A stretch of DNA of 64,000 nt from the NCBI GenBank assembly GCA_016839705.1, contig JAEOTR010000044.1, positions 1 through 64,000 on the forward strand, read 5' to 3'. Within the stretch, counting starts at the first letter, position 1. Each line of letters starts with the position of its first letter. This document shows, one piece after another, positions 25,411 through 43,706 of the stretch. The position numbers and the translations under genes were made by a program. The notes under the pieces were generated by a model. That model saw nothing but the letters and a program-made list of their open reading frames with translations, did not search any database and was not told the origin of the DNA. Origin of the DNA: Promethearchaeota archaeon (GTDB lineage: Archaea > Asgardarchaeota > Lokiarchaeia > Sigyniarchaeales > SOKP01).

Positions 25411-28400
25411 ATGAAATTTTATAGAAAAACTTTAAAACGTAAACTGAAGTTATCTAGTATCCTATTATTTCTTCTAATTGTTCCAATTATCCTGAATGCA
25501 TCGCTATTTAATATATTTCATTTTAAAGAATTTAATGAAGAAGAAAACAGTTTTGATATCAAAGAAACCCCAAGATTAAATGCACCACCTAATGCAGATC
25601 ATTTTACTTCTTACAAAACAATTACAATAGATCATAATAAAGTTGCAGGATCAAGCACCTATCCTAATTTTCCTGTTTTTATTTCAATTACTGATCCTGA
25701 TTTAAAAACTGATGTTCAACCAGATGGGGATGATATTGCATTCTCTGTAGAAAATACTTGGGTAGATCATGAAATAGAGTTATTTGATCAAGCATTTAAT
25801 CCCACACATGCTCGATTGATGGCCTGGGTGCGAATTCCTAGTTTATCGGGTATTACTGATACAGTAATCAGAATGTATTATGGGAACTCTACCACAAGTT
25901 CGAGGCAAAACCCCGATGGAGTGTGGGAAAATAACTATAGAGGTGTCTGGCATTTAAATGAACAAATTGGTGGGTCAGATGCCATAATTGATTCAACCGC
26001 ATATTCAAATGACGGAACAGATATTAACAGTCCTAATCTAGGGCAGAATGGTCAGATTTATAACTCCATTGGTTTCACTGATGCTTCTGGTCAGAGAATC
26101 CAAGCTTCTGATGATTCAAGTTTAGATATATCCAACCAATTAACTGTGGAAGCATGGATAAATCCAACCGTTGTTTTTGAATGGTCAACTATCGTAAGTA
26201 AAATGGATGGAGCGTGGGGTAGTGGAGATGTATCCAATTTTGATATCTATGTTGCAATCAGCGATCTTGGAAATTTTTATATCGGACTGTCTAATCCTTC
26301 AGATATATGGGATGAATGGTATTCACCTGTCTCGGTTTCCACCGGTACATGGCAACATTTTGTCTTTACTTATCAAAGTTCGACATCAATGGGAAGAATT
26401 TTTGTAAACGGCGCTTTCATGAGTGAACACGATTTTGGTATCGGGACATTAGGTACAAATGGAAATCCCCTTTATATTGGCTTTAATAGAGGGTGGACAG
26501 GAGAAGTTTTTGATGGTTTAATTGATGAAGTTCGAATTTCCAGTATACCTCGTTCATCTGGATGGATAAATACAGAATACGTCAACCAAAATGATCCGGA
26601 TACATTTTATACAGTTGGAGCGGAACAAGTTGTATCTTCTGATCCTCCCAATGCTCATTACTTTACTTATTATAAAACAATCACTATTGATCAAACTCAG
26701 GTTGTTGGCTCAGGAAGTCATGTTAATTTTCCAGTTTTAATATCTTTTGTTGATAATGATTTGAAATATCACGCTCAACCTGATGGTGATGATATTGCTT
26801 TTTCTATCAGTGGAGATTGGTTGAATCATGAAATTGAGCTATTTGATCAATCTTATAGCAGCACACAAGCTCAACTAGTAGCCTGGGTACAGATTCCTTA
26901 TCTCTCTACTAGTAAAAATACAACATTTACAATGTATTATGGTAATTCAACTATGACCTCTCAAGAAAACCCTAGTGGTGTATGGAATTCTAATTATGTT
27001 GGTGTATGGCATTTAAATGAAAATCCTGGAGGAACTGTTTATGATAGTACTTCTTATAATAATGATGGTACTACTCTCGGATCAATGGATACTTCCGATT
27101 TAGTGTTATGTAAAGTTGGTAAAGGATATGAATTAGATGGTGTTAATGATATAATTAGTGTTTCTGATAGTACAAGTTTAGATACGGTAAATGATGAAGG
27201 GACATTATCTTTATGGTTAAATTGGGTTGATCCTTCAGCAGGAAGATATCAAAGAGTTATGACTACAAGCAATCGTTTTGAATTAAATCCCACTCCCCCT
27301 CCTACATACCTCCAAACTGATGGTTTTGAATGGGCGGTACAACCCGATGGTGATCATTTTTTCTACCCTTATGGGGGAAATAGTATCAATTATAACCTCG
27401 CCACGAATCCTTTTACAAATAATTATTGGCATTATGTAGTGGTAACACTTAAGTTTTCTACTAAAACCGTTAAAATTTACTTAGATGGGACTTCTTTGAG
27501 TTTTTCAATAGAAAATGTACCCTCACAGTGGTTAGTACTAGCTAATCTTGAAGATTGGCTGTGGGGTGGAGATACTGTTACCACCGGAAGTCAATTTGAA
27601 GGTAAATTTGATGAGATCCGTGTTTCCAACGTTGAACGTTCTGCTAATTGGATAACAACAGAATATAATAACCAATTTGACCCGAGTTTATTTTATACGG
27701 TGGGGAGTGAACAGCTTGTGTCTGAACAACCTTCTGATGTGGAAAATTTCAACTACTACAAAATAATTACTATTGACCATACAAAAGTGAATGGAACAGG
27801 TAGTCATCTAAATTTTCCTCTTCTTATCTCTATCCTCGATTCAGACTTGAAATACGACGTTCAAAATGATGGTGATGATATTGCCTTTTCAATGGATGGT
27901 AAATGGCTTGATCATCAAATAGAGCAATTTAATCAAAGTTATAGTGGTACTCATGCTCGATTAATCACATGGGTTCGTGTACCATTTTTATCAACTGCAT
28001 TTGAATCCCAAATTAGGATGTATTATGGCAATTCAACTATCAATTCACGGCAAAATCCCATGGGAGTATGGCTTTCTGATTATGCTGGAGTATGGCATTT
28101 AAATGAGGATCCATCCGGTGTTCCCCTCCAGATTAAAGATAGCGCTCTTCCTGCCAGTGATGGTGCAACTTACGGCAGTATGACTTCTTCAGATCAAGTT
28201 CCCGGAATTATTGGGGGTGCATTAGATTTCGATGGAGTTAATGATTATGTAGATTTTGGGAATCCTGGGGAAATGCAAATTACAGGTGAGATTACTGTCC
28301 AAGCTTGGCTTAAAGTCGATTATATTGGAAATGATTATTTAATAGTAAAATCGGGAGAACCTGGTTTTAGAGGGTGGGATATCAGTTTTGACGATGATCC

Positions 28401-31400
28401 CGGTATTGCTCCTGATGGATGGATTATGTTCCGTTATTCTCCAGACGGATCTAATACTGTTATTACTGGTTATGAACGAGTAAAAATAAATCAATGGTAC
28501 CACGTAGTAGGTGTTTTTAAACCAAATGAATATTCAAAATTATTCTTAAATGGGACCCAGGTCGCTATAAGAACGGCAGGAGTTTCACCTTCAATGAATG
28601 ATCCTTCCTTACCTCTTCGTATTGCCAGGCGATCGGATGCATCAACATCATATGTGAATGGAATTGTAGATGAAGTTCGTGTATCTACGATTGCACGTTC
28701 TAATGATTGGATTGTTTCTGAGTATTCAAATCAATATGATCCTTCTACTTTTTATTCTGTCGGTCCAGAACAATCCATAAAAATACTACCTTTTGTAGAT
28801 GCTCAAATTAACGCTATTGACTTATATAATAACTTATTGCCTAATGTAACTATTTCGGTATATCAGTTTACTCAATTAATGGATCGTAGCATTACTGATA
28901 TTAATGGTTCTGTTTTATTTTCTAATCTTATTGAAGGAGAATACAACTTTACGGCATCAATATATTCAGATATCGCAAATGTGACCGAAATAGTAAATGT
29001 TACATTGGGAGCAATTTCTCTTAATCAATCATTTCAAACGGTTGATTTAATTTGTAATGTAACCTCCCACTTCTTCGAACTACTAGATACCGATGCGAGT
29101 CCTTTAGAGTCAGGATGGATTATGGTTGGAAATGATACGCATATACTCAAGCAATGTATTATAGATCCAACTGGACACACAACGTTTTGGTGGGTAGATG
29201 CTCCTCCATCCGAATATAACTATACTGTCTACTATAGCAACGCGTTTTATAATCCTTCAACTCTTACGCTTGCTTCAGGAGATATAACAACGGAAAATGA
29301 TACTATATATATTCAAATCGGATTAACCACTGTAGATTTTCTAGTGCAAACCATTACTCAACCAATTACTCCTGTAAGTGGTGCTAAGCTTATATTGACT
29401 GTCGGTGATCCATTAGGTGCAAGTATTGCTAATTTAACCACCGATATAAATGGACAAACGACATTAAGATGGTTGAATTCATCAGGGATCGGTGGAGACT
29501 ATTGTGTTCAGATTGAATTCTTCGGAGTGAATAGATTATTTAACGATACAATAGGTCCTGCTTCGGTATATAATTACAGTTTTACAGTGAACAATAGAGA
29601 TTCTATTGAGTTTAGAATGTCAATTGATCTTAACAAATTTCAAACAGAATTAATTTCCTTAAATCCTTCTGATTATATTGAAATTGAATGGGGAACAGTT
29701 TTGAAATTAAGAACATTGTTTAATGTGAGTAAAGTAGAAGCGGGTTATGAATCATTATTAGGACCAGAATATGCCGATATAATGACATTTGAAATGTTAT
29801 ATGGAGGTATTTCTTTATTCTCAGGTGTATTTGAAAAAGAAGTTGGAAATGAAGGAAGACATTACGTGAGTATAGATACTCATGATATGGATAGTGATAC
29901 GAGTTATATTATTATTATTTCAGCTCAAAAGTCTGGATATTCTATTCCCTCAAGCCTAATCCTTCAATTAGATGTTTTAGAAATTGATGTAGAATTAAAT
30001 CAATCCGATAACGATAATTCCGCAACATCAGTATATTGGTCAGATATCGCTGATATGACGTTAAAATCTTACGGTGTAAATTCTGAGACTCTTACCATAG
30101 AAAATGCCCTTTTCCAAGATGTTGATCATAATTTTAGTTTCCTTATTTCTGATGTTACCAATAATTGGAACCTCTCTACCATCATCTTTAACATCTATGG
30201 TATTTCATGGAATACGGATATAATTAATATAAATGTCACCATTGAGGATCCTTATAGTGTCTCTCATGTATATAACTCTTCCAATCATTTAGGATGGGAT
30301 TATAACCGAAGTTTATGGACGGGAATTACATTAGATTTAAATAAAGCTAGTCAAACCAATGATAATAATTTTGAATTTAAAATAAGTGGTACTTTTGACG
30401 GAACTGTCGATGTTGTTGTAGATGCATATTGCATAAGAGATTCACTTAGCGTTCGATATTCAAAGTTTAACGTAAGTGATTCTATTTCACTTGAGAGCAA
30501 ATCAGAAGGGTGGGCAATAAAAGATATCATCTTTGAAGTATCTAATTGTTATTATACCTCTAATTGGAGTACTGTAGACCTATCAAGTCTTACAAACTTA
30601 AATTTTACTACAAACGAAGGATTCTCCTATTCTTTAGACACAGGATATTCTAACGGAACGGGTGTTTTAACTATTGATGATAGATTTATATATCCAATAT
30701 TAAATCAATTCTTATTTACTATTGATAGCGAGTTTGATATACTCTTCAATGCAATCATTAAAGTTGGATATGTTCAAGGATTTTATTTGAATCAAATTTT
30801 TGAAACATTTAACTTCACCTCAGCGAAACAAGGAATAGCAAATGGAGGGATTTTCCAATTGAGTGCCAACGAGAATAGTTGGACTGAACAAGAAGCGGAT
30901 CTTTGGATTACAGGAATCAAAACTGGATTAACATATGTCTATCCTTCAGATGTAGGTATGAGTATTACTATCGGAGGTCAATCCTATAGTATATATGATT
31001 ATTCATTAGGAGTTGGAAAGATTTCAATAACAGGATTAACAAAAAATCAACTCTACCAAGCAGACATAGATTATTCAAGCGCGGCAAATTTTAGTCTTTT
31101 ACTTTCAATAGAAAACACTAGAGATATATCATATGAAATAGTAAGTTCATTATCATATGTAATAGTGGAAGAACCTTCTATATTCGGAACGGTTCAGTAT
31201 AATCAACAGTTGCAATACTATCTAAAAATCCTTGATACTTTTCTACTTGATGCTGATGAATATACTGTAAGATTCTCTATAACGAAAGAACACTATATAA
31301 CGACAACAAAAGACCTTAACCTACTCGTTTTAAATCGTCCAACGTTGTTGAATGGTTCTACAGAATTTTTCAGAAAAATTGAATTTATTTATGTTAAAGA

Positions 31401-33432
31401 TGCAATCAACTTTACTTTACATTATACAGATGCGATAACAGGAGCTGGAATTTCCAATTTAAAAACTCAATATTACATTTGGGAAAGTTATGATCAAGCA
31501 GGGAATGTAAATGAAACGGGGCAAGGGGATATATTCTCTACTATAGATAATACTTATATAGTAAATTTCAACACAGAAAATAGAAGTGTTGGAGAATATC
31601 TACTTATTGTCATTCTAGATAAAGAGAATTATGATTACAAGAATGCGATGATTCTTCTATCTATTATAAAAAGAGATTTCAATTATATATTAAGTGAAAA
31701 TATTCAAGATAAACAAATTAACGTCGTTCAAGGTAAGAGTATTCCAATAGAATTAACATTATTAGATCCTACCAAAGGAGATATTTTTGTGCTTAATGCG
31801 ACCATAGAGCTAATAATTAGTGGTAATACTTATAAATTCGATTATGATGCAAATGGAACATACATCTTTAATTTTCCAACAAATAATATAGATGCATTTT
31901 TCTCTTCAAAGACTCTTAGAGGGATCATAAAAATATCTAAACAAGATTATAACTCGATAGAAGTATCAATTACGATCGTTGTTGAGATGGAAGAAATTTT
32001 TCCGGGAATTCCGACATTTTATTTCTTACTGATTACATCTATTTTAGTTGCTCTAATAGGTAGTATTGTAGGCTATAGAGTTTATCAGAATGCAAAAATA
32101 CCTTCTTTTGTAAAGAAAGTTAGAGCAATGAAAAAATCCATTAAAGGAGATAAAAGCGTAGCTGATTCCCTTATTTATCGCGATAAAGAAGTGTTTATAG
32201 GGGAAATATTAAAAAATGATTGGGATCGACTTGGTTTATCAATAGAAGAAATCTTTGGGATAGCTCTCGAAAAAGAAAAGAAGAAAAGAATTTCAAAAAA
32301 TCGACTTTCCAAAATAACAAGAGAACATGATAATAAACCTCTTGGATTAATATTGATGAAATGGGATGAGAGAATCGGTACTGAAATTATAGTCAGATAT
32401 CCAGCAGAGATCAAAATTTCGGAAAAAACTCTAATGCAAATATATAGCACTCATGAATATAGTGGGGAAAGAGGAGTAATCACATTAACAGCCGAAGCAG
32501 CTAATATTATATCATACTACAGTGGCCCCGAAGAAGGGTATTATCTACTCTTAATTTTGAACTTAGATGATGATCCTGATGTTTATGAAGGAGGTTTAGT
32601 AGAGACATTAAGAATTCTTTTAGAAAATATCACCGATGAATCTTATATGAATTTAATACCCTCCCTTTTCCAGAGAATATCTTTATATCCATCACTCACT
32701 TATGAGGAAATTCTTGCTGTTACATACCAAAATAAAATTAAGCGTTCGATTATAAACCTCTTGAAAGATGATGGTGTTGTGCTTAAATCTGAGCTAATAA
32801 TCTGGCTTAAAGACAAATTTGTCTATGGTTTTTTTGATTTAGAAACAATTTTAAGTGAATTGATTAAACTCGATATTCTGAAGGTAAGTTCCATTAAAGA
32901 TGTACCATCTGAGCTTATCTTCCTTACTAATGATATTTTTCTGGTTAGAGTTCCGCCTCTCAAATTACTTGATAAACCTGCTAGTTATGGCTTACCAACT
33001 CAATTTACCAAAGAATATCCTAAAGATGTTAGAAATTTCTTTGAAACGTATCAACCAACAGAAGAAGATAACATAAAAATAGCTGAAGTCTTATCTAATC
33101 CACAAGTTTATGAAACTCTAAGACTACTAAGAGATGCTATTGTTACAAGAGAAGACCTTGAGAAACTTAGGAAAAAAGGAGTAGACGATATTTACAGTGT
33201 TTTAAAAATTCTCTGGGATAATAAGATAATAAAAGTCTATCATGATGAAAAAAATGTTGAATACTACGCCCTTATCACAGATCTTTATACTGATTTCATT
33301 TTTCCAAAATACTTAATGAAAACTATTAAATCTGCATATGACACAAAATCAAAAGTTAAAAAATCCCTAGTTGAGTATCTTAATATCCTAGAAGAATCTT
33401 ACTTCAAATTGAAGTCTTCCAAGAAAGAATAA
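25411..33432 (+). CDS. Giant type-I membrane protein A: 3x DUF2341+LamG modules, beta-rich stalk, TM, cytoplasmic longin/DENN-like domain
   Basis: N-terminal hydrophobic helix; three YKTITID...DGDDIAF...WV.IP...MYYGN...GVWH...DEVR..WI.TEY.NQ modules; TM 32011-32076; cytoplasmic KPLGLILMKWDERIGTEI. Confidence 0.85.
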   Translation: MKFYRKTLKRKLKLSSILLFLLIVPIILNASLFNIFHFKEFNEEENSFDIKETPRLNAPPNADHFTSYKTITIDHNKVAGSSTYPNFPVFISITDPDLKTDVQPDGDDIAFSVENTWVDHEIELFDQAFNPTHARLMAWVRIPSLSGITDTVIRMYYGNSTTSSRQNPDGVWENNYRGVWHLNEQIGGSDAIIDSTAYSNDGTDINSPNLGQNGQIYNSIGFTDASGQRIQASDDSSLDISNQLTVEAWINPTVVFEWSTIVSKMDGAWGSGDVSNFDIYVAISDLGNFYIGLSNPSDIWDEWYSPVSVSTGTWQHFVFTYQSSTSMGRIFVNGAFMSEHDFGIGTLGTNGNPLYIGFNRGWTGEVFDGLIDEVRISSIPRSSGWINTEYVNQNDPDTFYTVGAEQVVSSDPPNAHYFTYYKTITIDQTQVVGSGSHVNFPVLISFVDNDLKYHAQPDGDDIAFSISGDWLNHEIELFDQSYSSTQAQLVAWVQIPYLSTSKNTTFTMYYGNSTMTSQENPSGVWNSNYVGVWHLNENPGGTVYDSTSYNNDGTTLGSMDTSDLVLCKVGKGYELDGVNDIISVSDSTSLDTVNDEGTLSLWLNWVDPSAGRYQRVMTTSNRFELNPTPPPTYLQTDGFEWAVQPDGDHFFYPYGGNSINYNLATNPFTNNYWHYVVVTLKFSTKTVKIYLDGTSLSFSIENVPSQWLVLANLEDWLWGGDTVTTGSQFEGKFDEIRVSNVERSANWITTEYNNQFDPSLFYTVGSEQLVSEQPSDVENFNYYKIITIDHTKVNGTGSHLNFPLLISILDSDLKYDVQNDGDDIAFSMDGKWLDHQIEQFNQSYSGTHARLITWVRVPFLSTAFESQIRMYYGNSTINSRQNPMGVWLSDYAGVWHLNEDPSGVPLQIKDSALPASDGATYGSMTSSDQVPGIIGGALDFDGVNDYVDFGNPGEMQITGEITVQAWLKVDYIGNDYLIVKSGEPGFRGWDISFDDDPGIAPDGWIMFRYSPDGSNTVITGYERVKINQWYHVVGVFKPNEYSKLFLNGTQVAIRTAGVSPSMNDPSLPLRIARRSDASTSYVNGIVDEVRVSTIARSNDWIVSEYSNQYDPSTFYSVGPEQSIKILPFVDAQINAIDLYNNLLPNVTISVYQFTQLMDRSITDINGSVLFSNLIEGEYNFTASIYSDIANVTEIVNVTLGAISLNQSFQTVDLICNVTSHFFELLDTDASPLESGWIMVGNDTHILKQCIIDPTGHTTFWWVDAPPSEYNYTVYYSNAFYNPSTLTLASGDITTENDTIYIQIGLTTVDFLVQTITQPITPVSGAKLILTVGDPLGASIANLTTDINGQTTLRWLNSSGIGGDYCVQIEFFGVNRLFNDTIGPASVYNYSFTVNNRDSIEFRMSIDLNKFQTELISLNPSDYIEIEWGTVLKLRTLFNVSKVEAGYESLLGPEYADIMTFEMLYGGISLFSGVFEKEVGNEGRHYVSIDTHDMDSDTSYIIIISAQKSGYSIPSSLILQLDVLEIDVELNQSDNDNSATSVYWSDIADMTLKSYGVNSETLTIENALFQDVDHNFSFLISDVTNNWNLSTIIFNIYGISWNTDIININVTIEDPYSVSHVYNSSNHLGWDYNRSLWTGITLDLNKASQTNDNNFEFKISGTFDGTVDVVVDAYCIRDSLSVRYSKFNVSDSISLESKSEGWAIKDIIFEVSNCYYTSNWSTVDLSSLTNLNFTTNEGFSYSLDTGYSNGTGVLTIDDRFIYPILNQFLFTIDSEFDILFNAIIKVGYVQGFYLNQIFETFNFTSAKQGIANGGIFQLSANENSWTEQEADLWITGIKTGLTYVYPSDVGMSITIGGQSYSIYDYSLGVGKISITGLTKNQLYQADIDYSSAANFSLLLSIENTRDISYEIVSSLSYVIVEEPSIFGTVQYNQQLQYYLKILDTFLLDADEYTVRFSITKEHYITTTKDLNLLVLNRPTLLNGSTEFFRKIEFIYVKDAINFTLHYTDAITGAGISNLKTQYYIWESYDQAGNVNETGQGDIFSTIDNTYIVNFNTENRSVGEYLLIVILDKENYDYKNAMILLSIIKRDFNYILSENIQDKQINVVQGKSIPIELTLLDPTKGDIFVLNATIELIISGNTYKFDYDANGTYIFNFPTNNIDAFFSSKTLRGIIKISKQDYNSIEVSITIVVEMEEIFPGIPTFYFLLITSILVALIGSIVGYRVYQNAKIPSFVKKVRAMKKSIKGDKSVADSLIYRDKEVFIGEILKNDWDRLGLSIEEIFGIALEKEKKKRISKNRLSKITREHDNKPLGLILMKWDERIGTEIIVRYPAEIKISEKTLMQIYSTHEYSGERGVITLTAEAANIISYYSGPEEGYYLLLILNLDDDPDVYEGGLVETLRILLENITDESYMNLIPSLFQRISLYPSLTYEEILAVTYQNKIKRSIINLLKDDGVVLKSELIIWLKDKFVYGFFDLETILSELIKLDILKVSSIKDVPSELIFLTNDIFLVRVPPLKLLDKPASYGLPTQFTKEYPKDVRNFFETYQPTEEDNIKIAEVLSNPQVYETLRLLRDAIVTREDLEKLRKKGVDDIYSVLKILWDNKIIKVYHDEKNVEYYALITDLYTDFIFPKYLMKTIKSAYDTKSKVKKSLVEYLNILEESYFKLKSSKKE
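26731..26956 (+). repeat. Near-identical DUF2341-coding segment, copy 1 (copy 2 at 34859-35084)
   Basis: Long nucleotide identities, e.g. gatggtgatgatattgctttttctatcagtggagattggttg and tagtagcctgggtacagattccttatctctctac. Confidence 0.85.
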
Positions 33433-33574
33433 ATGACAATTTTTTTTATGTTTTTTTACATTTAGCAATACTAGAATTTCAAACTTTAAATATAAATATA
33501 CGAATTTACTATTATTTTGTAAATACAATTTTATGTTTTGTATAATCTTATTTTATACATGAATTTGATCAAAA

Positions 33575-36500
33575 ATGAAGTCTAGGTATTATATTTCAAA
33601 AATTACTACAAAAAAAATTACGGCACTTATCTTTTTATTGTTCACATTAATAATCCCGATAATAATTAACTCACAGTTATTTTCAATTTCTCATGAGGGT
33701 GAGAAAGAAGATACAGATTTAACACCGAAATTAAATGCCCCTATTGATGCTCATCATTTTACTCAATTTAAAACTATAACCATTGATCATACTCAAGTTT
33801 CAGGAACAAGTGGGCTTATGAACTTTCCTTTTCTCATCTCGCTTTATGATGAGGATTTACGTGTCGATGTGCAATCTGATGGGGATGATATTGCTTTTTC
33901 TTCAAATAACCTTTGGTTAGACCATGAAATTGAGGTGTTTGAACAAACCTATAATGGAACACATGCTAAATTGGTTGTTTGGGTCAGGATTCCTGCCTTA
34001 TCAGTATCTAGTGATACAAATATTAGAATGTATTATGGTAATGCCACAATGAGTTCACGAGAAAATCCACAGGGAGTATGGGATAGCAATTATTATGCTG
34101 TATATCATATGAATCAAGACCCAAGCTCATCTTCTATTCTGGATAGTACTTCTAATAGTTATGATTTAACACCGGGTGCAGGTTTTACTTCTGGAGATCT
34201 TGTAGAGGGAACGATTGGCAAAGCTATACAATTCGGTGGAGTAAATACAGAATATTTAGAACTAACCTCTGGTTTTTCTAATCCAACAAGCGCGCTATCT
34301 CTTGAAATGTGGTTTAGGCCTCAATTATATGATACATATCAACGTTATTTCACAGCAAGATGGAGTTATCCCGATCTTCGGTTACAGACTTCCAATTTCA
34401 TTACCACTCGAATTCGGAATAATCTTGGAAATGTAAGTTCTACTGAAGGTCTCTTCAATGGTTGGACAGATCAATTTTATCATTTTGTTATGACCTGGCA
34501 AGGTGGAACAGTTGGGCATCAAAAGCATTATATTAACGGAACACTAAATAGAGATGATTATGATGCCGAAGCTTTAGGGACTTCCTCTTCTTGGACAGGC
34601 TTTAATCTCGGTTCAGATACAGACCACACTGATCCCATCGGTGGGATGATTGATGAATTTAGAATAACTTCCAATGTTCGTTCTTTAGATTGGTTTGAAA
34701 CGGAATTTAATAACCAATACAATCCGAATGCTTTTTATACTATTGGAGCGGAGCAAGAAGTCGTTTGGGATCCTCCGAATTCCCAATATTTCGCATATTA
34801 TAAACTTATTACAATCGATCATAATGAAGTAAGTGGTATTGGTGTCCATTATAATTTTCCAGTTTTAGTTTCTTTTATTGATAATGATTTGAAATATCAT
34901 GCTCAACCCGATGGTGATGATATTGCTTTTTCTATCAGTGGAGATTGGTTGGATCATGAAATTGAGCTATTTGATCAATCTTATAGTAGCACACAAGCTC
35001 AATTAGTAGCCTGGGTACAGATTCCTTATCTCTCTACAAGTGAAAATACAACAATCACAATGTATTATGGTAATTCAACTATGAGTTCACAACAAAATCC
35101 AACCGGAGTCTGGGGCAGTAATTATATAGCTGTATGGCATATGAATCAAGATCCGTCATCCTCTAACATTTTAGATAGTACTTCAAATAATTATGATTTA
35201 ACAACGAGTGGATTTTCTAGTGATACACGCTTTAATGATGGAAAGGTGGGAACAGCAATTTCCGTTGATGGAATTAACGATAGATTTGGAATAGCTAGTA
35301 TTAACGGCCCGGTAAATGACTTAACATTTCAATCATGGTTTACACCTGATAATACTATAGCCTCGGGAAGCCCACAGATGGATCTTTTTGGGGGCAATAG
35401 TCTTTCGAGTAATCATCCTACAATGAGATTTACTACCAGTGGAACAGTTAATGTTTTTTTAGAGGTAACTTCAGATTCTAGTGAAGGTTCTTATGGTGTT
35501 AAAAATTCATGGGCTGCTGGTTCATGGTTTCATTTTACTTATGGAAGGTCTATGAGTTTGTCAAGAGCATATCATTACATAGATGGAATACAAGATGTGC
35601 TTGATACTGGTTCTGATAATGGTTATCCACACTTACCTTGGGATCAATTTTCAATATTAGCCAGTATCGATGGGTCAAGAATTTGGGGTCCAGGAGCAAT
35701 CTCAGAGTTTAGAATTCTAAAAACTGCTCTTTCGGGTGATTGGATATTAACAGAATACAATAATCAATATGATCCAAACTCTTTCTATACTATCGGGAGT
35801 GAGCAGCTTGTGTCTGAACAACCTTCGGATGTGGGAAATTTCGCCTATTACAAAATAATTACGATTGATCACACTCAAGTCAATGGAATGGGTAGTCATG
35901 TAAATTTTCCATTTTTGGTTTCACTTCTTGATACAGATTTACGTTTTGATGTACAAACTGATGGTGATGATATTGCTTTTTCTACGGAAGGTCAATGGTT
36001 AGATCATCAAATAGAATTATTTGATCAACCCTACAATGATACTCATGCTCAATTAATTGCATGGGTCCGTATCCCTTTTCTATCTACAGTAGAGGATACG
36101 GAAATTACTATGCACTATGGAAATTCCACTATGAATTCACGCCAAAATCCTACAGGTGTTTGGCCAGATTACAAAGCGGTTTGGCATTTTAATGAACCTA
36201 CTGGAACGGGAGATTATATAAAAGATTCAACTGAAAATGATTATGATGGAACTCCATTCGGTACACAATTTTTAGATTCAGGACAAATCGATGGATCAAG
36301 ATCTTTCTCAGGTGCTGGTGATGATAGGGTTGTTATAAATCAGGGATCTGAGTTTTTCAACGGAGATAATTCGTTTACCTTTTCTTTTTGGATATATCCA
36401 AACTACCAATCAGATGCAGAATGGGAATCAATGACAGATCGTTATGTGTTTTCTAAAACATCATCCGTTAGGATGGCACGTCTTTGGCGTCAGAGCTTTC

Positions 36501-39500
36501 TTGGCCCCGGGGAAGGAAGATTTCAAGCAGATATTCAATTTGCGACATATGGTACTACCTATAGTAATGTGGCAGTTTATCGGCAAGAGTGGACTTATGT
36601 TACATATTCCTATGATGGAAATTACCTAAGGGCATATAGAAACGACCAATTAGTAATTTCAACGAATATTGGAGGATTTCCTTTAATTACAGATTCAAGT
36701 ACATTCTATTTCGGTAGGTTTAATAGCTTTAAAGGATATTTAGACGAATTTCATGTATTGAATACTTACCGATCTGATGGATGGGTTGCCACGGAGTATT
36801 ATAACCAATTTAATCCTACTACATTTTTCGATATCAGTGAAGAACATTATTCTAAACCAATTGTAGAAGTTGATGTTCTAATTAATGCTGTTGATTTATA
36901 TGTTAATTTATTGCCCAATGTAACAATTTCTATGTATCAATATACAGATTTAATTGAAACAGATATTACGAGTATTGATGGGACAGTTAGTTTTACTGAT
37001 ATCACTGCAGGAGAGTATAATTTTACAGCATCAATCTATTCAGAAATCGCAAATGTAACTGAAATAGTAAACATCACATTAAACGCAATCCAACTTAATC
37101 AATCCTTTCAGACGATTGATTTAATCTGCAATGTAACTAGCCATTTCTTCGAAGTAGTAGATATCGATGGTAGTCCTCTAGAGTCAGGATGGATTATGGT
37201 TGGAAATGATACACAAATTTTCAAACAATGTAACATAGATCCAACGGGACATACAACGTTTTGGTGGGTAGATACACCGCCTTCCCAATATAACTATACC
37301 GTTTATTATAGTAATGCTTTTTATAATCCCTCGATTCTCATGCTTGCTTCAGGGGATATTACAACGGAAAATGATTCAATTAATATTCAAGTAGAATTAA
37401 CAACTGTAGATATTTTAGTGCAAACCATTGACGCACCAATTACCCCTGTTAGTGGAGCCAAGATCAAATTAACCGTTGATGATCCACTAGGTGCAAGCAT
37501 TGTTAATTTAACCACTGATATAAATGGACAAGCGACCATAAGATGGTTAAATTCATCAGGGATAGGCGGAGATTACTGCGTTCAAATTGAATTTTTTGGA
37601 GTGAATAGGTTGTTTAATCAAACTGCTGGAGGACCTGCTGCTGTGTATAATTTCACTTTTACGGTGATTAATAAACAATCTCGTGAGTTTAGAATGGCGA
37701 TTGATCTGAACAAATTTCAAACTGAAATAATCTCGTTAAATCCTACTGATTATATTGAAATTGAATGGGGTTCAATAATAAAGCTTAGGACATTATTCAA
37801 CGTTAGTAAAGTGGAAAGTGGTTATGAGTCTCTTTTAGGATCAACTTATGCAGATTTAATGACATATAATATGTTATTGGCTGGTGAAATAGTTCAGTCA
37901 GGAACGTTTTTAGAGGAAGATGGAAATGTAGGTAGATATTCTGTAAATATAGACACAAAGCAAATGGATAGTGATGAGAATTATCTCTTAATTATCTCAG
38001 CTTATAAATCTGGATTCACGATTCCTTCAGATCTAATACTACAATTAAATATCCTGAAAAATAACTTAGAGTTGAGTCAATCCAACAAAGATGATTCCGC
38101 GTTAACAAGCTATTGGTTAGAGAGTGTTAACATGACATTAAAATCTTATGGTGTAAATTCTGAGACTCTTACGATAGAAAATGCCCTTTTTCAAAGTGTT
38201 GATCATGAATTTAACTTCCTAGTTTCTGATGTTAAAAATAATTGGAACCTTTCTAAAATCGTCTTTAATATTTATGATATCTCATGGAATACAAATATTA
38301 CTAATATTAATATTACAATTGAAGATCCTTATGGATCTTTTGCTTATACTTTTGATAACAATTCTGGTGGTTGGGATTACACTCAAGGTACATGGACAGG
38401 AATTACTTTAGATTTAAATAAAGCAAGTCAAACTAATGATAATAATTTTGAATTTAGAATAAGTGGTACTTTTGACGGAACTGTAGATATTGTTGTGGAT
38501 GCATATTGTATAAGAGATTCACTTAATGTAAAATATTCAAAATTCAATGTTAGTAGTGAAATCCCTATTTTATCAGAAACAGAAGGATGGGCAATAAAAA
38601 ATATCACATTCGAGCTATCTGATTGTTATTATACCTCTAATTGGAGTACTGTAGATCTAAATCTCATAAACTTAAATTTTACCACAAACGAGGGTTTCAT
38701 ATATTCACTAGATGCGGGATATCCTAATGGATCTGGCATTTTAAATATTGATGATAGATTCATTTATCCAATATCAAATCAATTCTTATTTACTATTGAT
38801 ACGGAGTTTGATGTAATCTTCAATACAATCATTACAATTGAATATGTTCAAGAATTTTATGTAAACCAGATTTTTGAAACATTTAATCTCAGTAAAACAA
38901 GTCAAGGAATTGCAAATGGAGGGATTTTCAAATTGAGTGCCAATGAGAATAGTTGGAATGAACAAGAATCGAACCTTTGGATTACAGGAATCAAAAGTGG
39001 ATCAACGTATTTCTATCCTTCAGATATATCAATGACTATTACCATCGGAGGGCAAACCTATAATATTTTAGATTATTCTCAAGGAACTGGAAGATTCTCT
39101 TTAGTGGGATTTACGAAAAATCAAATCCACCAAGCAACTATTGATACCTCTACCCCAGTAGATTTTAGCCTATCGTTATCAATTGAATATCAAAGAGAAT
39201 TGTCATATGAAATTATAAATTCATTATCATATATTATTATAGAAAAACCTTCCATAACCGGGACAGTTCAATATGATGCTCAGTTAGAATATTACCTAAA
39301 AACCATTGATACTTCACCACTTGATGCTGATGAATATACTGTAAGATTCTCTATAATGAAAGAAAATTATATTTCAACTACAAAAGATTTAGAATTATAC
39401 GTGCTTAATCGTCCAACACTACTTAATGGCTCTTCAGAATTTTTCAGAAAAATTGAAAACATTTATGTTAAAGATGCTGTAAATTTTACCTTGGAATATA

Positions 39501-41512
39501 CTGATGTGTTAAGTGGGAACAAAATAACAAATTTAAGAGCTCAATATTATATTTGGGAAAGTTATGATCAAAACGGTAATGTAATTGATAGTGATCAAGG
39601 AGATATCATTTCTACATTAGACAACACTTACATCTTGGATTTTAACACAGAAACAAGGTCAGTTGGAGAATATTTATTAGTAATCACAATTGATAAAGAT
39701 AATTATGACTGGAAGAATGGTATGATTCTTCTTACTGTTAATAAGCGAATACTAAACTACTCTTTAGGACTTAATTTTAAAGATTTTAAATCTAGTGTTG
39801 TTAAAGGGAAACCTGTTACAATAAACGTTTCCTTGACTGATCCTACACAGGGGGGAATCTCGTTAGTTAATGCAACTGTTAAATTGACAATTAGTGGTAA
39901 TACTTATGAGTTTGAACCGTATTCAGTGAATGAAACCGGAGTTTATACATTTGAACTACCAACAGATAATATTAATACTTTCTTCAGTTCTAAAACTCTA
40001 ACCGGAATTATAAATATCACAAGAGAGGATTATATTTCTGAAGAATTTACAATTATTATTGTGGTTGAAATGGAGCAGATCTTTTTTGGGATACCTACGT
40101 TTTATTTCATTTTGGGCTTATCTGTCATAATTGCCTTAGTTGGTAGTATTGTGGGATATAGAATTTATCAGAACGCAATAATTCCTACGTTTGTAAAAAG
40201 AGTAAGAGAAATGAAAAAGGCAATACAAAAGAGTAAAATCATATCAGAATCAATTTTATATCCTAACAAAAATGCTTTCGTTGCAGAAAGAGTAAATCAC
40301 AAGTGGGAAAAACTTGGCTTATCATTAGGGGAAATTATCGATACTGGGGGATATCGAATCAAAAAAATATCAAAAAAAGAAAAAAGAATAGCTGAAACGG
40401 TAAAAGAACACGAATTAAAACCTATAGGATTAGTAATAATGAAATGGGATGAAAGAATCGGAACAGAAATATTAGCTAAATATCCTGAAGAAACTTTTAT
40501 TTCAGAAAAGACTTTAATGCAGATATATAGCACACATGAGTATAGTGGAGATAAAGGTATAATAGTCCTTTCTGCTGGTACTTTGAATATTATTTCCTAT
40601 TATTCTGGACCAGAGATAAGTTATTATCTTCTTTTGATCTTAGATTTAGACGATGATCCAGACCTTTATGAAGGAGGAATGGCAGATACATTAAGAATTC
40701 TTATGGAAAACATTGAAGATGATTCCTATAAACAGCTAATGCCTTCTCTTTTCCGACGTTTATCCCTCATTCCATCTCTTAGTGACGAAGAACTACTTAC
40801 TCATAGTTATCAAGATGAAATAAAACGTATGCTCATAGATAATTTAAGAGATATTGGTTTGGTAACAAAATCAGAACTAACTGTGTGGCTTAGAGATAAG
40901 TTCCTTGAAGTATTCATCGATTTAGATGCGACGCTTTCTGAAATGTTAAAGAAAGAATTCATAAAACAAGTATCTGTGAAGGGTTTACCATCAGAATTAA
41001 TAGTTTTAATAAATGATATATTTATGCTTAGAATACCCCCAGTAGACTTATATGAAGATCCCGTGAATCGAGGTTTACCATTACAATTCAGGAAGGAATA
41101 TTTAGCAGAAGTTAAACAATTTTTCCAAAGTTATCATCCAACGAATGCAGATAATTTACAGATTATGAAGATTTTCAATAATCCTGATGTGTATCACATT
41201 CTAAGATTATTGAGAACTACAATTGTGACAAGACAAGAACTTGAAAAATTACGAAAGAAAGGCGTGGGAGACATCTATGCGGCGTTAAAACTGTTGTTTG
41301 ATGCTAGAATGATAAAAATTTTCCAAGATGAAAATAATAATGAGTATTATGCCCTTCTCTCTGATTTTTATATAGATTTAATTTTTCCAAAGTATCTCTT
41401 AGGGATAATTAAAGCAATTTATGAACAGAAATCTATAGCAAATAGAGCATTGATTGAATATCTCCAAATTCTTGAAGATACGTACTATAACTTAAAATCA
41501 AAGAAAAAATAA
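33575..41512 (+). CDS. Giant type-I membrane protein B, tandem paralog of A
   Basis: Same architecture; TM 40094-40159; KPIGLVIMKWDERIGTEI; stalk and cytoplasmic parts clearly similar to A. Confidence 0.85.
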   Translation: MKSRYYISKITTKKITALIFLLFTLIIPIIINSQLFSISHEGEKEDTDLTPKLNAPIDAHHFTQFKTITIDHTQVSGTSGLMNFPFLISLYDEDLRVDVQSDGDDIAFSSNNLWLDHEIEVFEQTYNGTHAKLVVWVRIPALSVSSDTNIRMYYGNATMSSRENPQGVWDSNYYAVYHMNQDPSSSSILDSTSNSYDLTPGAGFTSGDLVEGTIGKAIQFGGVNTEYLELTSGFSNPTSALSLEMWFRPQLYDTYQRYFTARWSYPDLRLQTSNFITTRIRNNLGNVSSTEGLFNGWTDQFYHFVMTWQGGTVGHQKHYINGTLNRDDYDAEALGTSSSWTGFNLGSDTDHTDPIGGMIDEFRITSNVRSLDWFETEFNNQYNPNAFYTIGAEQEVVWDPPNSQYFAYYKLITIDHNEVSGIGVHYNFPVLVSFIDNDLKYHAQPDGDDIAFSISGDWLDHEIELFDQSYSSTQAQLVAWVQIPYLSTSENTTITMYYGNSTMSSQQNPTGVWGSNYIAVWHMNQDPSSSNILDSTSNNYDLTTSGFSSDTRFNDGKVGTAISVDGINDRFGIASINGPVNDLTFQSWFTPDNTIASGSPQMDLFGGNSLSSNHPTMRFTTSGTVNVFLEVTSDSSEGSYGVKNSWAAGSWFHFTYGRSMSLSRAYHYIDGIQDVLDTGSDNGYPHLPWDQFSILASIDGSRIWGPGAISEFRILKTALSGDWILTEYNNQYDPNSFYTIGSEQLVSEQPSDVGNFAYYKIITIDHTQVNGMGSHVNFPFLVSLLDTDLRFDVQTDGDDIAFSTEGQWLDHQIELFDQPYNDTHAQLIAWVRIPFLSTVEDTEITMHYGNSTMNSRQNPTGVWPDYKAVWHFNEPTGTGDYIKDSTENDYDGTPFGTQFLDSGQIDGSRSFSGAGDDRVVINQGSEFFNGDNSFTFSFWIYPNYQSDAEWESMTDRYVFSKTSSVRMARLWRQSFLGPGEGRFQADIQFATYGTTYSNVAVYRQEWTYVTYSYDGNYLRAYRNDQLVISTNIGGFPLITDSSTFYFGRFNSFKGYLDEFHVLNTYRSDGWVATEYYNQFNPTTFFDISEEHYSKPIVEVDVLINAVDLYVNLLPNVTISMYQYTDLIETDITSIDGTVSFTDITAGEYNFTASIYSEIANVTEIVNITLNAIQLNQSFQTIDLICNVTSHFFEVVDIDGSPLESGWIMVGNDTQIFKQCNIDPTGHTTFWWVDTPPSQYNYTVYYSNAFYNPSILMLASGDITTENDSINIQVELTTVDILVQTIDAPITPVSGAKIKLTVDDPLGASIVNLTTDINGQATIRWLNSSGIGGDYCVQIEFFGVNRLFNQTAGGPAAVYNFTFTVINKQSREFRMAIDLNKFQTEIISLNPTDYIEIEWGSIIKLRTLFNVSKVESGYESLLGSTYADLMTYNMLLAGEIVQSGTFLEEDGNVGRYSVNIDTKQMDSDENYLLIISAYKSGFTIPSDLILQLNILKNNLELSQSNKDDSALTSYWLESVNMTLKSYGVNSETLTIENALFQSVDHEFNFLVSDVKNNWNLSKIVFNIYDISWNTNITNINITIEDPYGSFAYTFDNNSGGWDYTQGTWTGITLDLNKASQTNDNNFEFRISGTFDGTVDIVVDAYCIRDSLNVKYSKFNVSSEIPILSETEGWAIKNITFELSDCYYTSNWSTVDLNLINLNFTTNEGFIYSLDAGYPNGSGILNIDDRFIYPISNQFLFTIDTEFDVIFNTIITIEYVQEFYVNQIFETFNLSKTSQGIANGGIFKLSANENSWNEQESNLWITGIKSGSTYFYPSDISMTITIGGQTYNILDYSQGTGRFSLVGFTKNQIHQATIDTSTPVDFSLSLSIEYQRELSYEIINSLSYIIIEKPSITGTVQYDAQLEYYLKTIDTSPLDADEYTVRFSIMKENYISTTKDLELYVLNRPTLLNGSSEFFRKIENIYVKDAVNFTLEYTDVLSGNKITNLRAQYYIWESYDQNGNVIDSDQGDIISTLDNTYILDFNTETRSVGEYLLVITIDKDNYDWKNGMILLTVNKRILNYSLGLNFKDFKSSVVKGKPVTINVSLTDPTQGGISLVNATVKLTISGNTYEFEPYSVNETGVYTFELPTDNINTFFSSKTLTGIINITREDYISEEFTIIIVVEMEQIFFGIPTFYFILGLSVIIALVGSIVGYRIYQNAIIPTFVKRVREMKKAIQKSKIISESILYPNKNAFVAERVNHKWEKLGLSLGEIIDTGGYRIKKISKKEKRIAETVKEHELKPIGLVIMKWDERIGTEILAKYPEETFISEKTLMQIYSTHEYSGDKGIIVLSAGTLNIISYYSGPEISYYLLLILDLDDDPDLYEGGMADTLRILMENIEDDSYKQLMPSLFRRLSLIPSLSDEELLTHSYQDEIKRMLIDNLRDIGLVTKSELTVWLRDKFLEVFIDLDATLSEMLKKEFIKQVSVKGLPSELIVLINDIFMLRIPPVDLYEDPVNRGLPLQFRKEYLAEVKQFFQSYHPTNADNLQIMKIFNNPDVYHILRLLRTTIVTRQELEKLRKKGVGDIYAALKLLFDARMIKIFQDENNNEYYALLSDFYIDLIFPKYLLGIIKAIYEQKSIANRALIEYLQILEDTYYNLKSKKK
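34859..35084 (+). repeat. Near-identical DUF2341-coding segment, copy 2
   Basis: Matches 26731-26956 with only scattered substitutions. Confidence 0.85.
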
Positions 41513-41551: not shown

Positions 41552-41627
41552 AATCCATACCTGAGCAAGGGTTTCATCAAATAACTTTCTACGAGAGGCT
41601 TTTTTATTTGAGTCATTACTATGGATT
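41552..41627 (-). promoter_or_regulatory. Eukaryote-like SECIS element in 3' UTR
   Basis: Minus strand: helix I AAUCCAUA/UAUGGAUU; core AUGAC...UGAA; helix II UCAAAUAA/UUAUUUGA; apical AAAA run; starts 4 nt after the TAA of the UGA-containing ORF. Confidence 0.8.
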
Positions 41628-41631
41628 TTTT

Positions 41632-42552
41632 TTAGTCACAATCTTCTGCTTGTTGTTTATTAATTTTGATAAATGCTTCCTCTTGAAGATTTCGTTGTTT
41701 TGATTTGATAGTTCGATTTACTTGACTTAAATGTTTCATGGCATTATTTTTTCCGTTTTTAATATTTTCAATCAATTCTTCTTTACTAAATCCTCCAGAA
41801 ATGACAATTGCTGTTTGAAATGATTGGTTAGGTTCCAATGTCTTAAATTCTATTTGTAAAGCAGATAAAACTTCTCCTGGGTCTTTATATAATGTATTAG
41901 AAAGGTTTAAATTATTCTGATTGATTATGAAATCTCTTGTTAAACATGTCTGGTAATTAGTTGATTTAGAGATAGGAGAAAATCCACCGTGCAAGCCAGT
42001 GTTATCATATTGATAAATTATATCATTTTCTTCGTCATATCCAGATAGATCATTATCAAAACCATCAAGTCCATTTATATCAAAATCAAAGACAAAATAC
42101 ATCGAAAAATCTTTCATTGCAAAATCTGAAATATTTTTCATAGTAAAGAAAGTACTAATATAGGGTACTTGTGGGGGATTAAATATGTCTTTGTAAACAC
42201 GAACAAACTCCTTCTTTTGTAATGGAACAGATTTTATGATATTTTCCCGTACTAATTTCTTAAGATACTCCGTTATATTGAAATCCAAGGTAATTCTGCT
42301 TATTGCAGTCCCCTTACGAGTATTTACCATATTATATATTGGCGTGGGTTCGATGTTTTTTAATATTACCGGGATTGTCCCGATTCCTTTTCCTTCTAGT
42401 TTAAAACTGAACCATGGACCAGTTAATTCTTGTTCACTAAGATAAATGAGATATTTTCCCTTATATGTAAGTTCTTTTATTGAAAATCCCATGACATATC
42501 CAGCAGCGTTTCAAGTTGTGAGCACATCGTGCCAATCTACCTTAATTACTAT
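41632..42552 (-). CDS. Candidate selenoprotein of unknown family (~306 aa, Sec at codon 14)
   Basis: Frame continues upstream of track Met through a single TGA (42511-42513): (M)VIKVDWHDVLTT-U-NAAGYVMGFSIKEL; AAGGAGGT SD 9 nt before ATA at 42552; SECIS downstream; exact start uncertain. Confidence 0.75.
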
Positions 42553-42719
42553 CTTATTTTAACCTCCTTCAATTAACTATAATTCTCCAATTTTTTAATG
42601 ATTAGTATATCACTACTTTAAGAGAAGGGGAATTTATAAAAAATACTGTATAAATATCAAGAGTAAAATTTAAGTAAATTTTTGAGTATATTCAAGAACA
42701 AATGGAAAATTTATATATA

Positions 42720-43706
42720 TTAGTATAATGCCTCAATAACTCTATAAGCTACATAAAAAAATGCGTCGTTTACATTTTCTCCCGTTTTCGCGCTTGTTAA
42801 AATGTAATGAAAACCATAACTCTTGGCAACTTCCTTTATGTCATCTTTACTTATCACTATTTGATCTCCTAAGTCTGATTTATTTCCCACTATAATAATA
42901 GGGATATTTTTGGGAATAGATGCTTTTAAATCTTTATACCATTTTTCAACACTATCAAGATTTTCTTGACGAGTTCTATCAATCACAATAAAAGCAGCAT
43001 TAGCACCATTATAAAATCTTGCTCTATAGGGTGCCATCTGAAAACTCTGACCTCCAATGTCCCAAATTATGAAGTTCATTTTATTATGATCAGTTAAGTT
43101 AATCGTTTTTTTTGAGATCTGTACACCTATAGTAGAAATATAATCTTCTTTAAAGGTGTTTTCCACAAATCTTCTAATTAGAGATGTCTTACCTACTAAG
43201 AAGTCACCTGTTAATATTACTTTATTTGAATATTCCCCGGCTAATTTAGGAAGCGCTCCCGCTCTTGTCTTCGCTAAAGCTTTTATAATTTCAGGAATTT
43301 CAGTAGATACTTCCTCATTTCCATCTAAAATTAATTCTATTTTGCCAGCTATATGTTCTGAATATACTTTTAATTCGATATCACTTGTTAATTGATCTGT
43401 TACTGTTGTCAAAATTGATTGAGGACCTTGTGAACAAAACGCAAACTTATTTTCTTCTGTTGAGGTTATATTAAAGAAATTACCCTGAGATCCAAATTCA
43501 CTTTTAATTCTCTCAATATAATTATCAAGAATAGCTGAGATCGCACCAAGCACGGAATCCGATTCTTCTTCCTCACCTTCTTTGAACTCAGAAGCGATAA
43601 TAAAACCATCCCTATCACAGATCGCAACACCCAATATACCCTCTACTTCTTCAAAGTAGTTTTTCAAGATCTCTTTTAAGAGTTTACTACTTGGAAGTTT
43701 TTCCAT
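42720..43706 (-). CDS. Roadblock + Rab-like small GTPase fusion
   Basis: EGILGVAICDRDGFII; GDFLVGKTS, YISTIG, WDIGGQ, NKSD, TSAKTG; paralogous to C-terminal half of 23112-25175. Confidence 0.9.
   Translation of the reverse strand: MEKLPSSKLLKEILKNYFEEVEGILGVAICDRDGFIIASEFKEGEEEESDSVLGAISAILDNYIERIKSEFGSQGNFFNITSTEENKFAFCSQGPQSILTTVTDQLTSDIELKVYSEHIAGKIELILDGNEEVSTEIPEIIKALAKTRAGALPKLAGEYSNKVILTGDFLVGKTSLIRRFVENTFKEDYISTIGVQISKKTINLTDHNKMNFIIWDIGGQSFQMAPYRARFYNGANAAFIVIDRTRQENLDSVEKWYKDLKASIPKNIPIIIVGNKSDLGDQIVISKDDIKEVAKSYGFHYILTSAKTGENVNDAFFYVAYRVIEALY

Follow-up and report, generated by a model that had tools for sequence, protein, structure and literature searches.

A probable selenoprotein family of Asgard archaea with a predicted beta-supersandwich fold and a UGA codon upstream of its database start

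We find that an open reading frame listed in databases as a hypothetical protein of 286 residues very probably belongs to a longer gene, which starts 20 codons before the database start and has an internal UGA read as selenocysteine. The gene lies on the minus strand of a 64,000-nucleotide stretch of DNA from a Promethearchaeota archaeon (contig JAEOTR010000044.1, positions 1 to 64,000), called the window below. Judged from sequence comparison, and with no peptide, selenium-labelling or ribosome data, it is highly likely that the gene encodes a selenoprotein of a family shared among Asgard archaea. An earlier note on this DNA had proposed an undescribed selenoprotein, and every refutation test that was named beforehand and run favoured it.

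The full frame has 306 codons, of which the TGA at codon 14 is the sole internal stop. The earlier note had read one in-frame TGA seven codons before the annotated Met, a frame open up to an ATA with a strong Shine-Dalgarno sequence, and a C-terminus ending in EDCD, and each of these was found in the sequence (Table 1). The 306-residue sequence shows neither a signal peptide nor a membrane segment, and we therefore infer that the protein is cytoplasmic.

Table 1. Features of the selenoprotein gene, its 3′ element and its upstream neighbor, in window coordinates.
Feature	Position	Strand	Remarks
Full CDS	41632..42552	minus	306 aa, Sec at 14; ATA start to TAA stop; predicted product a stand-alone beta-supersandwich with C-terminal helices, based on the fold of Cys orthologue P0189
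Shine-Dalgarno AAGGAGGT	42562..42569	minus	9 nt upstream of ATA
Non-canonical start codon ATA, codon 1	42550..42552	minus	aligned with Met1 of P0189
In-frame TGA, selenocysteine codon 14	42511..42513	minus	aligned with second Cys of CxxC
Met21, database-called start	42490..42492	minus	internal residue; inside predicted strand 2
Cys305, candidate resolving cysteine	41638..41640	minus	invariant in 34 close orthologues
lokiSECIS-type element	41552..41627	minus	helix I, AUGA/GA core, 8-bp upper stem, A-rich 19-nt loop ending AG
AUGA/GA core	AUGA 41616-41613, GA 41575-41574	minus	within lokiSECIS-type element
Upper stem, 8 bp	41611-41604 paired with 41584-41577	minus	within lokiSECIS-type element
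Side hairpin with GC-containing loop, 3′ of core	41560..41570	minus	86/101 family elements versus 5.8 in shuffles
Roadblock + Rab-like GTPase, upstream neighbor	42720..43706	minus	Pfam Robl_LC7 + Ras; context, not a shown partner

Comparison of 79 loci supports the upstream start. A Shine-Dalgarno-like word precedes codon 1 in all 79, as against 18/79 for the called Met even with a lenient pattern. The 13-codon extension is free of stops, and its variation falls mostly on third positions, with entropies of 0.88, 0.42 and 1.57 at the three codon positions compared with a flat 1.27, 1.22 and 1.33 upstream. Codon 1 is ATA in 62 of the loci; the same position holds ATG in L155, GTG in L092-L095 and TTG in L096, and two genomes have an ATG start two codons upstream of it. 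DNA-level matches reach codon 1, beyond the Met21 start of the database proteins, and every Sec-form database entry that we examined is truncated. GTG at codon 10 was considered as a start and rejected, since 38/79 loci have Ile at that position. Three loci (L019, L165 and L174) have an out-of-frame ATG that opens a frame of 2-3 codons across the presumed start codon.

Could the UGA instead be a true stop that ends a 13-residue leader peptide, with reinitiation at Met21 and the 3′ hairpin acting as a terminator or stability element? All 120 database proteins listed for the window's branch begin at Met21, and GGAGGT is only rarely followed by an ATA start in the genome (1 of 57 scored sites), as such a reading would have it. 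However, Met21 is replaced by Phe in L092-L096, which form one sister genus, as well as in the Cys orthologue P0189; the stop at codon 14 is always TGA and never TAA or TAG; the extension aligns without gaps with the translated N-termini of Cys orthologues; and the presence of the hairpin tracks the Sec state. We consider a true stop very improbable.

The selenocysteine reading is carried mainly by codon 14. TGA was found there in 84/84 family-level orthologues inspected, with no other codon observed; these comprise 79 distinct loci with TGA in frame and 5 in which the frame is restored by intron removal. TGA also occurs in 14/14 Thorarchaeota and 2/2 Borrarchaeum loci, usually within CxxU, the Thorarchaeota CxxU members having ATG starts and their own SECIS and the Borrarchaeum members likewise combining CxxU with a SECIS. 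A profile search additionally recovered distant CxxC homologues, including DSAG12_02345 of Promethearchaeum syntrophicum and NEF87_004727 of Lokiarchaeum ossiferum, in which the second Cys of CxxC lies opposite Sec14 without gaps. Cys is found at the UGA position in P0128, P0131, P0173, P0189 and others, and P0189 shares the numbering of the window's protein (Met1, Cys11, Cys14, Gly18 and Phe21). Aligned by hhalign, the family profile and that of the distant homologues match with probability 100 and an E value of 1e-46, with Sec aligned to Cys and Cys305 to the terminal Cys. Because the profiles align with this probability and the Cys forms share the same upstream roadblock-Rab gene, the Cys forms can be counted as orthologues. 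Altogether, TGA or Cys occupies the codon-14 position in 37/37 rows of a cross-lineage alignment, so that conservation at this site, on which the proposal might have failed, holds. Over these 37 rows, which cover all lineages, residue 14 is the sole invariant Cys/Sec. Conservation elsewhere involves glycines, one Asn, one Leu and an acidic DFDxxG stretch, which P0155, an unrelated secreted-protein domain, has as well. The absence of a CxxU motif remarked on earlier is correct for the window's branch, which has lost the first Cys, but not for the family, whose motif is CxxC/CxxU.

Downstream of the gene, helix I begins 4 nt after the TAA and is followed by AUGA, an unpaired base, a perfect 8-bp stem, a 19-nt loop that starts with an A-run and ends in AG, and U-GA. 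The earlier note had described a 3′ UTR element with helix I, an AUGA/GA core, helix II and apical adenosines; all of these are in place, and only the small side hairpin between the core and helix I had been missed. According to Mariotti et al. (PMC4989117), the lokiSECIS consists of AUGA, a stem of nine positions, an A-rich loop with a final G, and then GA or AA. The window's element meets this description, with an A-rich loop start and a location near the stop, and departs from the 11-nt apical loop given there for the PrxL/VhuU/VhuD type. In orthologues the loop, which is nearer to type II, contains a mini-stem that varies; it is 11 nt long in one of them, L148.

A strict lokiSECIS pattern matched 10 sites in the 3.36-Mb genome, the window's element among them, and none in any of three shuffles. 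Six of the nine perfect matches listed lie behind genes with an in-frame TGA: selD, two vhuD, prxL, a small ORF with two TGA codons, and the window's gene. An Rfam search gave no match to a SECIS model, and the folding energy of the hairpin is ordinary (z -0.16 versus shuffles). Since folding energy alone is no better than in shuffles, the case for a SECIS rests on pattern and conservation. Within the family we observed compensatory changes in the upper stem (L042, L031, L018, L149-L151 and L163), and we note that counts of stem pairs are partly circular, the stems having been chosen by pairing. The element is present in nearly all TGA loci of the window's family, in 14/14 Thorarchaeota loci and in the two Borrarchaeum loci whose N-terminus is visible; it is absent in 12/13 Cys loci, the 13th being a poor match, and no SECIS was found for the Cys forms of P. 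syntrophicum and L. ossiferum. Loss of the hairpin among homologues would have counted against a selenoprotein; most TGA forms have retained it, and Cys forms lack it. In two small Loki families, five CxxU loci (L076 and L088-L091) show no canonical AUGA-GA core by pattern, which remains unexplained; three of the five retain a hairpin resembling the side hairpin. By eye, similar side hairpins also occur in the SECIS of selD (C5), vhuD (C15 and C81) and prxL (C13) of the window's genome, G000. The side hairpin is not mentioned in the sections of PMC4989117 and PMC11227280 that were consulted. In two Borrarchaeum loci (L141 and L143) the SECIS overlaps the last codons.

These features resemble those of known Asgard selenoprotein genes. 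The SelD, HdrA-VhuD, VhuU/FrhA and PrxL genes (PMC4989117; PMC11227280) have in common with ours a UGA in frame, an AUGA_GA core shortly after the stop and an A-rich loop ending in AG. In Thorarchaeota members of our family the SECIS shares part of its AUGA with the UGA stop and its loop starts with GUAAA, both of which have been described for frhA. The family differs from SelD, HdrA-VhuD, VhuU/FrhA and PrxL in having no sequence or fold relation to them, a loop of 19 rather than 11 nt in the window, and an AUA start in the window's branch.

The host genome appears equipped to read the codon. We found tRNA-Sec, SepSecS and two SelD genes with TGA, all over cut-off, bearing out the expectation that Sec machinery should be present. 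The best PSTK match (E 1e-42) and the best EFSec match (E 1e-69) are strong and below curated cut-offs, and both factors are probably present. Ribosomes recruited at the strong Shine-Dalgarno sequence would, on this sequence evidence, initiate at codon 1, here AUA, and reach the UGA at codon 14, which we infer is almost certainly recoded as Sec by the SECIS together with this machinery. The AUA start and Sec insertion may jointly keep output low.

The gene is widespread in Asgard archaea. An order-wide search found it in 140/154 genomes, nearly always as a single copy, and in the window's own family 123/134 genomes have a strong match, close to the 127/134 with SepSecS. Across the phylum, 233/400 genomes gave matches, about 200 of them strong; the weak matches that were visible are mostly a related domain within large proteins. 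SepSecS-negative families have no strong match, except for one family that consists of a single 66%-complete genome, and six SepSecS-positive families lack the gene. The Asgard lineages in this comparison are not independent samples. Like other Asgard selenoprotein genes, the family occurs in the three Sec-using clades that PMC11227280 names.

The fold was modeled on the Cys orthologue P0189, not on the window's protein, to which it is transferred by homology. AlphaFold2 gave P0189 an all-beta sandwich followed by helices (pLDDT 90.7), in which Cys11 belongs to strand 1 and Cys14 occupies the turn of the first beta-hairpin. The model matches a galactose mutarotase-like supersandwich over the whole domain, and we predict by homology that the window's protein has the same architecture, with residue 14 at the first hairpin turn of a single sandwich. 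Met21 would lie inside strand 2, and therefore the product called in databases would be missing strand 1 together with part of strand 2. The beta-supersandwich is shared with the N-terminal domains of GH94 phosphorylases, GH15 glucodextranase/glucoamylase and GH116 enzymes (Z 18-21, up to 20.7; rmsd 3.0-4.6 A over ~225-245 residues), and Foldseek gave E values of about 1e-7. The nearest predicted structures are unnamed Promethearchaeota/Thorarchaeota clusters, followed by domains of S8-peptidase and GH15 proteins. In contrast to the glycoside hydrolase domains, to which identity is ~10%, the selenoprotein family is stand-alone and carries a CxxC/CxxU hairpin, and the (alpha/alpha)6 catalytic barrel of GH94/GH15/GH116 is absent, the sandwich and following helices covering the 306 residues. 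A fold held in common with these enzymes is no evidence of function. The thioredoxin fold, alpha/beta with CxxC before a helix, does not fit either: the P0189 model is all-beta with terminal helices and has its CxxC at a beta-hairpin.

What the selenocysteine does can only be inferred. We propose that Sec14 is a redox-active nucleophile that would attack a disulfide or oxidized sulfur on a sandwich-bound partner (substrate unidentified), to be resolved by whichever Cys the lineage has retained: Cys11 of CxxU in Thorarchaeota and Borrarchaeum, or the C-terminal Cys in the window's branch. Such a selenol with a resolving Cys, argued from general knowledge of thiol oxidoreductases, seems to us a little better than an even bet, and the fact that the fold is not a known redox fold counts against it. 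Cys11 is kept in most Thorarchaeota, Borrarchaeum and several Loki branches and lost in the window's branch; the terminal Cys is kept in Promethearchaeales and absent in Thorarchaeota and Borrarchaeum. Each is thus dispensable across the family. Cys305 remains a candidate for the resolving residue, its distance to residue 14 being unmeasured and the end of the model having a pLDDT of only about 50. One Promethearchaeota branch (P0138, P0140, P0145, P0156 and P0200) has CxxCxxC and no C-terminal Cys.

The retention of three Cys/Sec residues in several branches (CxxC plus the terminal Cys, or CxxCxxC in P0138-type members) could also mean that Sec14 is a ligand for a metal, metalloid or Fe-S cluster, or a carrier of Se/S for Sec synthesis, without catalytic thiol exchange. 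Strong matches are confined to Sec-using lineages, and in Borrarchaeum the gene precedes a GcvH-like gene converging on SepSecS, both in keeping with such a role. Yet this SepSecS neighborhood is seen in one genus only, the six SepSecS-positive families noted above do without the gene, and most of the window's family has lost Cys11. A catalytic Sec/Cys with a resolving Cys fits better than a structural metal site because the nucleophile is invariant and its partners are interchangeable; a structural site is further argued against by one Thorarchaeota member with a lone Sec and no Cys. We regard a metal-binding or carrier role as unlikely. In the Borrarchaeum loci L141 and L143, the selenoprotein gene stands between a divergent radical SAM gene and the GcvH-like gene.

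The gene neighborhood bears on a further possibility, that the selenoprotein is a redox-switched adaptor or glycan-binding module without turnover, possibly serving the adjoining roadblock-Rab GTPase. This GTPase gene lies upstream in 59/63 loci of the two largest Promethearchaeales families and is 21 nt away in P. syntrophicum; additionally, the fold occurs as a non-catalytic accessory domain in GH94/GH15/GH116 and S8-peptidase proteins, and one member is fused to a vWA domain. No Rab neighbor was seen, however, beside Thorarchaeota, Borrarchaeum or two other Loki-family members, and there are no binding data, so that we find an adaptor role quite improbable. The "receptor/Rab locus" of the earlier note therefore holds in part: besides the Rab neighbor, a giant LamG gene adjoins the selenoprotein gene in 21/46 close loci, but neither was seen beside Thorarchaeota, Borrarchaeum or other Loki-family members. 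In the window, two tandem genes of ~2650 residues each, with three DUF2341 + LamG repeats apiece, occupy positions 25411-41512; the second, convergent with the selenoprotein gene, encodes a single membrane segment plus a cytoplasmic tail. Another roadblock-plus-Rab-like GTPase gene, with two GTPase domains, lies at 23112-25115. The vWA fusion, seen directly in one genome, is a CxxU member with the vWA domain at its C-terminus (L089:115-2298); a search for longer fusions came back empty, which is only weak evidence.

Five orthologues (L027, L032, L033, L036 and L037) carry 28-32 extra bases after the TGA, in no case a multiple of three, and the window's own copy has no such intron. Each insert has CUUG paired with CAAG as a 4-bp central helix, two 3-nt bulges and an inner hairpin, with an offset outer exon helix. 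The intron site lies one base after the Sec codon, which forms part of the central helix and bulge; an example is L037:2974-3001. The splicing endonuclease usually cuts after the second base of each bulge. Cuts at these positions restore Thr-Sec-Asn in 5/5 loci, and a cut one base earlier in L033 would give Tyr. The inserts in all five loci thus meet the criteria for a bulge-helix-bulge mRNA intron: a 4-bp helix, two 3-nt bulges and frame-restoring cuts. The introns are distributed patchily across one genus; because the gene tree requires four changes and a single intron-bearing clade is rejected (p-AU 6e-81), they appear to have been gained or lost repeatedly. A 151-nt metatranscriptome record matches L037 with 1 mismatch and lacks exactly its 28-nt insert, and the best intron-less locus compared with it is 92.7% identical. 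This is weak evidence of splicing, resting on a single record of depth 2.7 with a short 5′ side (<31 nt), and a strain without the intron is a plausible alternative source. The crenarchaeal cbf5 pre-mRNA intron (PMC2738675) has a similar 4-bp central helix and two 3-nt bulges within a CDS; the orthologues differ in the site one base after the Sec codon and in the patchiness on the gene tree.

The family appears to be real and unpublished, with a recoding system of a known kind and an unexpected fold. Seven Asgard selenoprotein families, found by homology to known families, are listed in PMC11227280, and ours is not among them; nor does the 119-family table of PMC13188914 contain a matching entry. 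Searches of Pfam and NCBIfam with the ORF and 65 family members gave no match, and neither did a PDB sequence search. In agreement with the earlier judgment that the protein resembles no known Asgard family, no profile match was obtained to SelD, HdrA, VhuD, VhuU, PrxL, AhpF-N or DsbA-like families. Literature on Asgard mRNA introns, AUA starts and Promethearchaeum proteomics yielded nothing on the gene, most subscription journals lying outside the search. The bacterial CxxU selenoproteins SelW-like, AhpD-like and GrdA (PMC13188914) likewise have Sec in place of the second Cys of CxxC and Cys homologues; they differ in fold, and their SECIS lies inside the CDS rather than in the 3′ UTR. The same genome contains a second unlisted selenoprotein candidate (L187:1791-2270; G000:C73, about 86790-87270). 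This small ORF contains two TGA codons in a row, has a strict lokiSECIS right behind its stop and lies downstream of genes for an SBF-family (ACR3-like) transporter and for a small CxC protein.

Tentatively, and at somewhat less than even likelihood, we picture a near-core, single-copy selenoprotein of the main Asgard lineages that use Sec, in which a non-catalytic domain of carbohydrate enzymes has turned into a selenol redox enzyme or switch. In this picture its synthesis would be held back at as many as three points: initiation at AUA, recoding of UGA through the SECIS and, in some species, splicing of the tRNA type next to the Sec codon. The function is testable now because the Cys form occurs in two cultured species, P. 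syntrophicum and L. ossiferum. With this family, Sec occurs on a fold that the selenoprotein table of PMC13188914 does not include, and the family offers a natural series of CxxC, CxxU and xxxU forms with matching absence or presence of the SECIS. Together with about 100 new SECIS elements that have a common side hairpin, this set bears on the origin of the eukaryotic SECIS and on the identity of its binder in archaea without SBP2.
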